From NCBI GenBank assembly GCA_038872135.1, contig JAVZGN010000003.1, positions 31,407 to 95,406 of the forward strand: DNA of 64,000 nt, written 5' to 3'. Of this stretch, positions 1,800 through 36,438 are shown one piece after another (position 1 is the first letter of the stretch; each line of letters begins with the position of its first letter). Source of the stretch: Candidatus Hadarchaeales archaeon (GTDB taxonomy: Archaea > Hadarchaeota > Hadarchaeia > Hadarchaeales > Hadarchaeaceae). Position numbers and translations under genes: made by a program. The notes under the pieces were generated by a model. The model made no database searches and was not told the DNA's origin. It worked only from the letters and a program-made list of their open reading frames with translations.

Positions 1800-1958
1800 T
1801 GGCGCCGGGGGGAGGACTCGAACCTCCGACCGCTCGGTTGCTGCATCCGGAATGGTCAGCCTTCAGAGATGGAGGCTCGCTCTTCATCCGCTCCCGGTTT
1901 TAACAGCCGAGCACTCTACCTACTGAGCTGTCGGGCCACCCAAAGGTGGAACCCCGGC
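1800..1958 (-). tRNA. tRNA-Asn(GTT) with two introns (8/9: 1930-1950; 37/38: 1839-1900), encoded CCA
   Basis: Removing both introns gives GCCGGGGTAGCTCAGTAGGTAGAGTGCTCGGCTGTTAACCGAGCGGTCGGAGGTTCGAGTCCTCCCCCCGGCGCCA, a complete cloverleaf; both junctions form BHB motifs. Confidence 0.93.
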
Positions 1959-1991
1959 ATCCCGGCACCAATTGTTTCTCAATCAAACTTC

Positions 1992-28950: not shown

Positions 28951-29979
28951 GTGGGAGTCCAGCTGGGAGATATTGTCTCCCGCGAAAAAATTGAACTCGA
29001 GCAGCTGAGGGGGCAGGTCGTATCAGTAGACGCAATGAATTTTCTATACCAGTTCCTCTCCATCATCAGGCAGAAGGATGGAGAACTTTTGAAGGACACC
29101 AGGGGCAGGATAACCTCCCATCTCTCGGGCCTTTTCTATAGGACTGCAAATTTCATTGAAGCTGGAATTCGCCCGATCTACGTTTTTGACGGGACCCCCC
29201 CGATGTTTAAGAGAAAGACAATCGAGCAGAGAAAAATGATAAGGGAAGAAGCCGCGAGGGAGTGGAAAAAAGCTCTGGAAGAGGGGAGGATAGAGGATGC
29301 GAGAAAATTCGCGCAGAGGGCGGGAAGAGTAGACGAGGAGATGGTTAACCAATCTAAAGAGCTTCTTTCGCTGATGGGGGTTCCGTGGATTCAGGCACCC
29401 GGAGAAGGGGAAGCCCAGGCCGCCCACCTTGTAAAAAAGGGAGATGCGGGAGGGGTTTCAAGCCAGGATTTCGACAGCCTTCTGTTTGGGGCGCCGGTTC
29501 TCATAAGAAATCTCGCAATAACCGGAAGAAGAAAGCTGCCAAGAAAGGACGCCTACATTGAAATCACCCCGGAAATCATCAGGCTTGAAGATGTCCTGAA
29601 ATCTTTGGAGATCACCAGGGAGCAGCTTATCGACATAGGGATTCTCATCGGGACGGATTACAACGAAGGGGTGAAGGGAATTGGACCAAAAAAAGCTCTC
29701 GAACTTGTGAAGAAGGAGGGAAGCCTAGAAAAAATTCTAAAAACAGAGATTGGGGAAAAGTTTGAGGTTGATCCCCTTGAGATAAAATCCCTCTTCCTCA
29801 ATCCCCCAGTCACCGAAGAATACAAAATTGAGTGGGGCGAACCCGACCAGGAGGGAATAAAAAGATTCCTTTGCGACGAGCATGATTTTTCAGAAGAGAG
29901 AGTTCAGACGGGGATAGAAAAGCTGATAAAGGGGAGACAAAAACTGCATCAGCAATCGTTGGAAAGGTGGCTAGTCTGA
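28951..29979 (+). CDS. fen: Flap endonuclease 1
   Basis: YQFLSIIRQ, EGEAQAA, GTDYN.GVKGIG, C-terminal PIP box QQSLERW. Confidence 0.96.
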   Translation: MGVQLGDIVSREKIELEQLRGQVVSVDAMNFLYQFLSIIRQKDGELLKDTRGRITSHLSGLFYRTANFIEAGIRPIYVFDGTPPMFKRKTIEQRKMIREEAAREWKKALEEGRIEDARKFAQRAGRVDEEMVNQSKELLSLMGVPWIQAPGEGEAQAAHLVKKGDAGGVSSQDFDSLLFGAPVLIRNLAITGRRKLPRKDAYIEITPEIIRLEDVLKSLEITREQLIDIGILIGTDYNEGVKGIGPKKALELVKKEGSLEKILKTEIGEKFEVDPLEIKSLFLNPPVTEEYKIEWGEPDQEGIKRFLCDEHDFSEERVQTGIEKLIKGRQKLHQQSLERWLV

Positions 29980-36348: not shown

Positions 36349-36438
36349 GGGCCGGTAGTTCAGCGGCATGAACGCCCGCTTCGCATGGTTGTCCGAAAAA
36401 GCGGGAGGTCGCGGGTTCAAATCCCGCCCGGTCCACCA
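36349..36438 (+). tRNA. tRNA-Ala(CGC) with 14-nt intron at 37/38 (36386-36399), encoded CCA
   Basis: G3-U70 in GGGCCGG/CCGGTCC; BHB central helix TTCG/CGAA with bulges CAT and AAA. Confidence 0.93.

Follow-up and report, generated by a model that had tools for sequence, protein, structure and literature searches.

The window analysed here is a stretch of 64,000 nucleotides from a Candidatus Hadarchaeales archaeon (GenBank assembly GCA_038872135.1, contig JAVZGN010000003.1, positions 31,407 to 95,406 of the forward strand). Its minus strand carries, at positions 1958-1800, a tRNA-Asn(GTT) gene that we delineated from the sequence itself and from intron-less orthologs. A TATA-like box, TTTATA (1992-1997), lies 31 nt 5' of the first G (1966) of a spare copy of nucleotides 1-6 of the tRNA, GCCGGG, which stands behind the usual TGGT in the leader element TGGTGCCGGG (1970-1961); the element as a whole is complementary to nucleotides 67-76. 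It is separated from G1 (1958) by an AT (1960-1959), whose A can be taken as the seventh position of the copy in degenerate form, leaving its T as a spacer of 1 nt. Exon 1, GCCGGGGT (nucleotides 1-8, 1958-1951), is followed by a first intron of 21 nt between nucleotides 8 and 9 (1950-1930), made up of a CCACC/GGTGG hairpin, the exon-binding tetramer CCCG and a final AC. Exon 2 (nucleotides 9-37, 1929-1901) supplies the D arm, the 5' side of the anticodon stem and the anticodon GTT, and is followed by a second intron of 62 nt at the canonical position 37/38 (1900-1839), which contains C/D-box-like motifs and has a boundary that is ambiguous by one A (the Rfam alignment has an insertion of 63). 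Exon 3 (nucleotides 38-76 with an encoded CCA, 1838-1800) ends in CCCGGCGCCA (1809-1800), the stretch with which the leader can pair, and a run of four T right after the CCA (1799-1796) is a likely transcription stop.

Removal of the 8/9 intron restores a canonical tRNA: in the intron-less orthologs GCCGGGGT is followed at once by AGCTCAG, nucleotide 9 thus directly succeeding nucleotide 8, and Rfam aligns model positions 9-63. That partial match (30.8 bits) is all that Rfam reports for the gene, and ARAGORN makes no prediction at it. As none of ARAGORN's 46 predictions is a tRNA-Asn and Rfam adds no tRNA locus except that of the window, this is the only tRNA-Asn gene found in the 1.08-Mb, 91%-complete assembly. 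An essential single-copy gene missed by one program and partly matched by the other implies that genes of this kind are likely to be annotated as missing or with a wrong 5' end. The stretch also has matches in hot-spring metagenomes (6 DNA rows from 2 studies).

In its sequence geometry, the 8/9 intron of the window gene is a full hBHBh' motif by the definition of Marck and Grosjean (2003), as quoted in section 4.8 of bioRxiv 10.64898/2026.10.13.758758. The central helix joins C3-G6 of the tRNA to the intron tetramer CCCG (1936-1933) and is present in the minimum-energy fold. It is flanked by two 3-nt bulges, G7-U8-U and A-C-A9, and the predicted cut after the second base of each would yield the 8/9 junction. 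The inner helix h' consists of the 5 bp of CCACC/GGUGG, while an outer helix h is possible through the pairs G1-C11 and C2-G10 and is absent from the minimum-energy fold. Since the central and outer helices are both built from the first strand, the splice signal requires the entire first strand of the acceptor stem. The genome contains RNase P RNA (162 bits) and, on contig 14, one gene with an EndA catalytic domain, the candidate enzyme for cutting this motif. According to PMC5829648, many tRNA genes of Hadesarchaea are disrupted, and their EndA is of the alpha4 type and bears an extra loop. The single EndA gene, together with the complete motifs found in 35 Hadarchaeota genes (see below), fits this report.

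The first-pass annotation of this DNA had pointed out that the leader repeats GCCGGG and can form a 10-bp helix with the 3' end of the tRNA, including the CCA, and this is confirmed on the sequence, with one U.G among the ten pairs. It had further held that the fold of the precursor should depend on the leader. In line with this, the minimum-energy structure that RNAfold gives for the precursor with its leader (-81.6 kcal/mol, z -2.83) contains the helix between leader and 3' end, the helix between C3-G6 and CCCG, the GUU bulge and the CCACC/GGUGG hairpin; without the leader, RNAfold returns an ordinary acceptor stem and no CGGG/CCCG helix. In other words, the helix of the splice motif is predicted in the window gene only when the leader is there.

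We then examined how the spare copy is distributed among relatives. Among 41 genomes of the order, a DNA search that did not use the copy as a criterion located the Asn gene in 38, and all 38 genes were read. As the first-pass annotation had expected of orthologs carrying the 8/9 intron, the spare copy is present in 17/17 of these, versus 2/21 of those without it (L023 and L033, both from one Hadarchaeota genus, g16). It reads GCCGGGG in 13 genes and GCCGGGA, GCTGGGA, GCCGGAT and GCTGGGG in one each, and is placed 1-4 nt before G1. Five genera (g1, g8, g9, g10 and g11) each include some species with both intron and copy and others with neither. When all species genomes were scanned with a pattern that demanded intron and copy together, matches came from Hadarchaeota and, outside them, from three thaumarchaeal MAGs and one Geothermarchaeales MAG, all of these latter being tRNA-Met genes. 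Two further sets were gathered with patterns that describe the intron only. The first covered 401 genomes of the order of one thaumarchaeal match (the reversed control pattern gave 1 match), and here the copy stands 2-17 nt upstream in 15/15 Nitrososphaerales-type Met genes with the intron; copies without the intron occur in 3 genes among the 401 genomes (L157-L159), which are close relatives of two intron-bearing genes. The second, for tRNAs that start with GGGCCCG, covered 66 Hadarchaeota genomes (0 control matches) and yielded 18 genes in 16 of them, Lys(CTT) and CAT tRNAs, with a copy in 18/18. It takes the form GGGCCC adjoining G1 in 11 of these, GGGCCCG followed by A in 3, GGGTCCG in 3 and GGGCTTG in 1.

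Taken over the genes that were gathered without requiring a copy, all 50 intron-bearing ones (17 Asn, 15 Met and 18 of the GGGCCCG type) possess it, a count that includes kin and thus genes that are not independent of one another. By comparison, a repeat of nucleotides 1-6 within 28 nt upstream was found in 0/40 other tRNAs of the genome (those of ARAGORN's 46 in which the script located the acceptor stem), and the difference between 0/40 ordinary tRNAs and 50/50 intron-bearing genes excludes chance. Nine more genes with both intron and copy lie outside the 50, having been found by patterns that require the copy: five Asn genes (G051, G054, G056, G057 and G060), a Hadarchaeota Met gene (L052), a Geothermarchaeales Met gene (L132) and two Lys genes (L181 and L182). 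Three other matches (L054, L063 and L183) were set aside as chance pattern matches that are not tRNAs, and of the 38 bacterial pattern matches 4 were looked at, none being a tRNA (0/4). For the mirror case, in which an intron would separate the T stem from the 3' acceptor strand and might call for a copy in the trailer, one pattern had 0 matches in the 66 Hadarchaeota genomes, a result too narrow in scope to speak for absence.

The splice motif recurs along with the copy. Among the 50 intron-bearing genes, the central helix has 4/4 pairs in 49 and 3/4 in one, and the outer helix, formed from nucleotides 1-2 or 1-3, has at least 2 bp in every one (50/50). The inner helix has at least 2 bp in 38/50, the other 12 being Met genes with 1; complete hBHBh' motifs are found in 35/35 Hadarchaeota genes. 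In the Asn and Met types, nucleotides 3-6 pair with the intron tetramer and nucleotides 1-2 with nucleotides 10-11, while the corresponding motif positions in the GGGCCCG type are nucleotides 4-7 and 1-3. This permits a comparison between families: where the acceptor strand reads GGGCCCG, the spare strand reads GGGCCC(G) and the intron tetramer is CGGG, pairing with C4-G7, and not CCCG. Covariation of leader and acceptor stem among relatives, which the first-pass annotation had named as a check, is thus seen in that the GGGCCCG family has changed copy and tetramer together, and the arrangement recurs in two other tRNA families and in a second phylum. Inside each family the real first strand is invariant, so within-family compensatory change is absent.

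The spare strand can pair with the 3' strand at 7/7 positions in 43 of 49 genes, at 6/7 in 5 and at 5/7 in 1 (L021), where the helix has 9 contiguous pairs once G73-CCA (73-76) is counted; control windows farther upstream reach 3-6 pairs, mostly 4. The number here is 49 rather than 50 as L147, whose 3' part reads N, was left out, and the register of L021 was read by eye, the automatic register search having picked a wrong one.

The position of the promoter bears on whether the copy is part of the transcript. Each of the 17 intron-bearing Asn genes (17/17) has a TATA-like motif whose start precedes the spare strand by 27-34 nt, in agreement with the earlier suggestion that TTTATA at 1992-1997 would put the transcription start near the beginning of the leader. 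A motif of this kind is found in 13 of the 19 Asn genes with neither intron nor copy, its start preceding G1 by 29-36 nt in those 13, while in the two Asn genes that have only the copy it lies 28-29 nt from that copy. Because the promoter stands at its ordinary distance from the copy, the copy is probably transcribed, and judging from this spacing it should form the extreme 5' terminus of the primary transcript, which would start at or just before it.

Folds were predicted for all three families. With the leader, all 17 Asn genes form the spare helix (P at least 0.8 in 17/17) and have an acceptor-stem P of about 0, and for the central helix the mean P is 0.41 at 37 °C, rising to 0.45 at 70 °C; with the leader removed, the acceptor stem has a P of at least 0.94 and the central helix one of about 0 in 17/17. 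For the 18 GGGCCCG genes at 70 °C, the mean P with the leader is 0.92 for the spare helix, 0.60 for the central helix and 0.07 for the acceptor stem, and without the leader 0.00 for the central helix and 0.97 for the acceptor stem. For 14 Met genes with the leader at 37 °C, the corresponding means are 0.96 for the spare helix, 0.04 for the central helix and 0.02 for the acceptor stem. That the two folds are mutually exclusive, as first proposed for the window gene, holds in silico for 49/49 genes folded. The central helix itself is less uniformly predicted. Its P stays below 0.25 at 37 °C in 7/17 Asn genes despite the leader; among the Met genes only L145 reaches 0.51, and since the inner helix is nearly absent from the Met motif, it would fall to the enzyme to hold this motif together. 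In L172, whose spare strand contains two wobble pairs, the true stem is predicted to persist. Shuffled leaders gave a mean central-helix P of 0.14, but G+C-rich shuffles often stay partly complementary, and the comparison therefore rests on the folds with the leader removed.

Our preferred reading, to which we assign a probability of roughly 0.7, is that a surrogate acceptor strand in the leader occupies the 3' strand while the real first strand builds the splice motif, and that strand exchange and RNase P cleavage follow. The leader of the pre-tRNA would then contain a decoy that stands in for the 5' acceptor strand. Cutting of the 8/9 intron would require that the bulge-helix-bulge (BHB) motif form from the tRNA's own first strand, and the 7-bp, G+C-rich acceptor stem would be expected to outcompete that motif. 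Being transcribed first, the spare strand would pair with the 3' acceptor strand, in the window gene also with G73-CCA, and the 3' strand so held would be unable to invade the motif, which could form locally during transcription. The endonuclease and the ligase would take out the 8/9 intron, the real first strand would take over the 3' strand, and RNase P, cutting at G1, would remove the spare strand. That the element is transcribed and pairs in vivo, that the strands are then exchanged and that the enzymes act in this order, we infer from sequence comparison and predicted folds.

The exchange of strands is the step at which the predictions depart from the original proposal. The first-pass annotation had described a cis-acting switch; its first half, in which the copy pairs with the 3' strand to free the 5' strand, is supported, but in its second half, by which the true acceptor stem would re-form after ligation, RNase P would next take off the leader and splicing would thereby precede 5' processing, the re-forming of the stem is not predicted energetically. 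For a precursor that has lost the 8/9 intron and retains the leader, RNAfold favours the spare helix in 16/17 Asn genes, only L013 preferring the true stem, and the advantage of the spare helix ranges from 2.1 to 11.7 kcal/mol at 37 °C and from 1.6 to 5.9 kcal/mol at 70 °C. As the spare helix is still favoured after splicing, the switch back needs something beyond secondary-structure energetics. The hand-over to the real strand may be brought about by the tertiary fold, by the pull of an enzyme, by RNase P irreversibly cutting a minor conformer at high temperature, or by RNase P first trimming off the TGGT extension.

The intron and the spare strand are only about 10 nt apart, and they would thus be inherited or transferred jointly whatever their function. 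We considered whether the duplicate could be an insertion scar, that is, a functionless by-product of acquiring the intron or an intron-bearing 5' segment that has not yet decayed, left, for example, by an imprecise recombination in which the recipient's first strand stayed ahead of the incoming copy. Such a scar would account for two features that are co-inherited within about 30 nt, for a promoter that retains its old distance to the upstream copy, and for a copy that, by the two-dimensional energetics just given, hinders final folding. It would also account for copies that exist without the intron and for the seeming loss of the copy by repeat collapse in one genus, where the third genome besides L023 and L033 (L028) has no copy and a leader that aligns with that of L023 as if one repeat unit had been lost. 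The copy-only genes (L023, L033 and L157-L159) imply that a copy is tolerated, or lingers, without its proposed job, and they could be relics of a lost intron or, equally, a pre-adapted state that preceded its gain. Other features speak against a scar. Positions 1-6 form an island with a pairwise identity of 0.91-0.97, against 0.30-0.48 for the adjacent upstream hexamers, and the six genomes of family f2, from two genera, have all kept the copy intact, with a single spacer type among them and differing upstream leaders. Leaving L021 aside, deviations from the real strand at positions 1-6 are C-to-T only, which keep a G.U pair (seven changes in six lineages: L018, L036, L145, L164, L167/168 and, twice, L172), and G-to-A or G-to-T changes are confined to the innermost position 7, none of the disruptive G-to-A kind occurring at positions 1-6. 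Finally, intron-bearing genes without a copy number 0/50. A scar is for these reasons an unlikely explanation of the element as it stands now; it may be how the element originated, only scar-bearing insertions having survived.

A role at the 3' end deserves consideration as well. While the first strand is engaged, the spare helix could protect the otherwise unpaired 3' strand and the CCA from exonucleases, offer a minihelix to the enzymes of the 3' end or of the CCA, or keep aminoacylation or RNase P cleavage from coming too early. It extends over G73-CCA in the window gene, L009, L018, L021 and L036; in 17/17 Asn genes the nucleotide preceding the copy is able to pair with the discriminator, and in 13/14 Met genes it is a T opposite A73, the splice motif of the Met family not being predicted to form even with the copy. 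Yet in the GGGCCCG family such pairing with the discriminator is seen in only 10/18 genes, and once the copy is absent, the real first strand is predicted to be taken by the 3' strand in 49/49 genes, so that the 3' strand would not be left unpaired. Such a role agrees with most of the data and is not exclusive of a surrogate strand that assists splicing, and as the explanation in place of it we think it quite improbable. Least probable is a wrong gene model, in which the upstream copy would be the real nucleotides 1-7, the spacer and the second copy an extra intron at 7/8, and there would be no long leader to remove: its promoter distance and the TGGT before the upstream copy are those of an ordinary tRNA start, and the mature sequence would be identical where both copies match, but the downstream copy is perfect in 17/17 homology-found Asn genes and the upstream one degenerate in 4, position 7 of the window's upstream copy is an A that would mispair with C66, the copy in 11/18 GGGCCCG genes has only 6 nt and adjoins G1, and the piece to be removed (6-23 nt) is identical, not complementary, to the exon and so cannot form a motif.

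The surrogate strand can be set against several known systems. An intron at position 3/4 was reportedly described in Thermoproteales by Sugahara et al. in 2008. Non-canonical BHB introns, multiple introns, alternative precursor folds and position 3/4 are already on record in the portion of PMC4090602 that treats them, and position 8/9 is absent from the intron positions listed there. The genes described here share with non-canonical archaeal BHB introns the motif, the use of EndA and ligase, the presence of multiple introns and a precursor fold unlike the cloverleaf; the leader copy of the acceptor strand is a feature of the genes here and not of the accounts compared (sections of PMC4090602 and PMC4033280). 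tRNAscan-SE 2.0, according to part of its description, adds 60 nt of flanking sequence to candidates to catch introns near the ends. Full-text literature searches, including parts of PMC4090602, PMC4033280, PMC3218864, PMC5829648, PMC8450103, PMC12397907 and bioRxiv 10.64898/2026.10.13.758758, returned no description of a leader copy of the acceptor strand; their scope ends short of the older primary papers (2003-2010) and supplements, which could show one.

Split and tri-split tRNAs, as in Nanoarchaeum equitans and Caldivirga maquilingensis, resemble the present case in that extra sequence from outside the tRNA supplies pairing that enables splicing. There, the leader and the trailer of separate transcripts pair, form the BHB and are cut off by EndA (PMC4090602, in the section on these genes). 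The Asn gene, in contrast, would give one transcript, as a single TATA-like box precedes all its exons, which form one contiguous series on the same strand, and its extra strand pairs with mature nucleotides 67-76, outside the motif, and would presumably be removed by RNase P; it has neither the separate gene pieces nor the BHB-forming extra sequences by which split tRNAs are defined. With ordinary pre-tRNA leaders that pair with N73-CCA or the 3' trailer, the leader here has the TGGT complementarity in common. Such pairing extends the true acceptor stem, however, whereas the leader here replaces the true 5' strand over 6-7 further bp. Attenuators and riboswitch platforms are alike in principle only, in having exclusive helices that compete for one strand, with the order of transcription deciding between them. 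They differ in that no ligand or ribosome takes part in the present case, and in that the output would be the order of RNA processing, not transcription or translation.

Archaeal tRNA splicing has been thought to need only the BHB motif. If the surrogate-strand reading is true, it adds a new cis-acting part, a helper strand that lies outside both the mature tRNA and the intron. It would also provide a testable case of an enforced order between splicing and RNase P cleavage in archaea, and a candidate rule for which tRNA positions are open to introns. We hold it to be slightly better than an even guess that the elements form a general class, in which leader stand-ins would be obligatory for any BHB intron that borrows acceptor nucleotides, would be born with the intron by duplication of the gene start and inherited with it as one unit, and would enforce splicing before 5' maturation across Hadarchaeota and Nitrososphaeria. 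Such a class, if real, would explain how introns colonised the most constrained end of the tRNA. The Met form of the element occurs in ammonia-oxidising archaea, and RNA work should be feasible if a cultured relative has it.

Several further observations were made on the tRNA genes of the window and its relatives. An 8-bp inverted repeat in the window, TTGAGAAA (1982-1975) versus TTTCTCAA (1798-1791) in the minus reading, has its upstream arm between the TATA box and the predicted start and its downstream arm just past the CCA. It would lengthen the helix between leader and 3' end, and was dropped as a candidate on finding, by eye, that it is not kept in orthologs. Positions -4 to -1 of the leader often read TGGT, TGGC or CGGT, complementary to N73-CCA, in many tRNAs of genome G000, the one from which the window comes, and in Asn orthologs (L011, L030, L034, L037, L040 and others). 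By a strict count, complementarity to 73-76 is found in 4/25 CCA-encoding G000 tRNAs, versus 0/25 for a control window. These bases could reflect an extended acceptor helix in the precursor or a preference of the initiator region. The initiator tRNA-Met of G000 (contig C11, about 29290-29400, minus strand) has an intron of about 40 nt right after nucleotide 7, the usual TGGT leader and no spare strand. For its precursor, RNAfold leaves the acceptor stem intact beside an intron hairpin, and the splice motif could not be placed with confidence, so that the gene makes a weak contrast. Between the TATA box of this gene and its start there is a C-rich stretch similar to the 3' strand.

The 37/38 intron of the window gene contains, at 1891-1855 on the minus strand, the C/D-box-like motifs GGATGAAGA, CTGA and CTGA, and scores 12.8 bits (E 0.67) against the Rfam family sR41, an archaeal C/D sRNA, which is far under the gathering score. 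By eye, a GGATGAAGA/GAATGAAGA block is seen in the 37/38 introns of most orthologs, several of them having variants. Intron-encoded methylation guides are known for archaeal tRNA-Trp, and the 37/38 intron may likewise encode a candidate guide. The interruptions of the Hadarchaeota Asn gene are otherwise very variable. In L036 (G024) there are up to four introns (8/9, D arm, 37/38 and T loop), several Asn genes without the 8/9 intron have one in the D arm and others one in the T loop (noted for loci L024/L026 and L025/L027/L029). Elsewhere in the window, at 36349-36438 on the plus strand, lies a tRNA-Arg(TCG) gene that ARAGORN in its intron mode mislabels as Phe(aaa), and whose length of 90 nt indicates that it, too, contains an intron.
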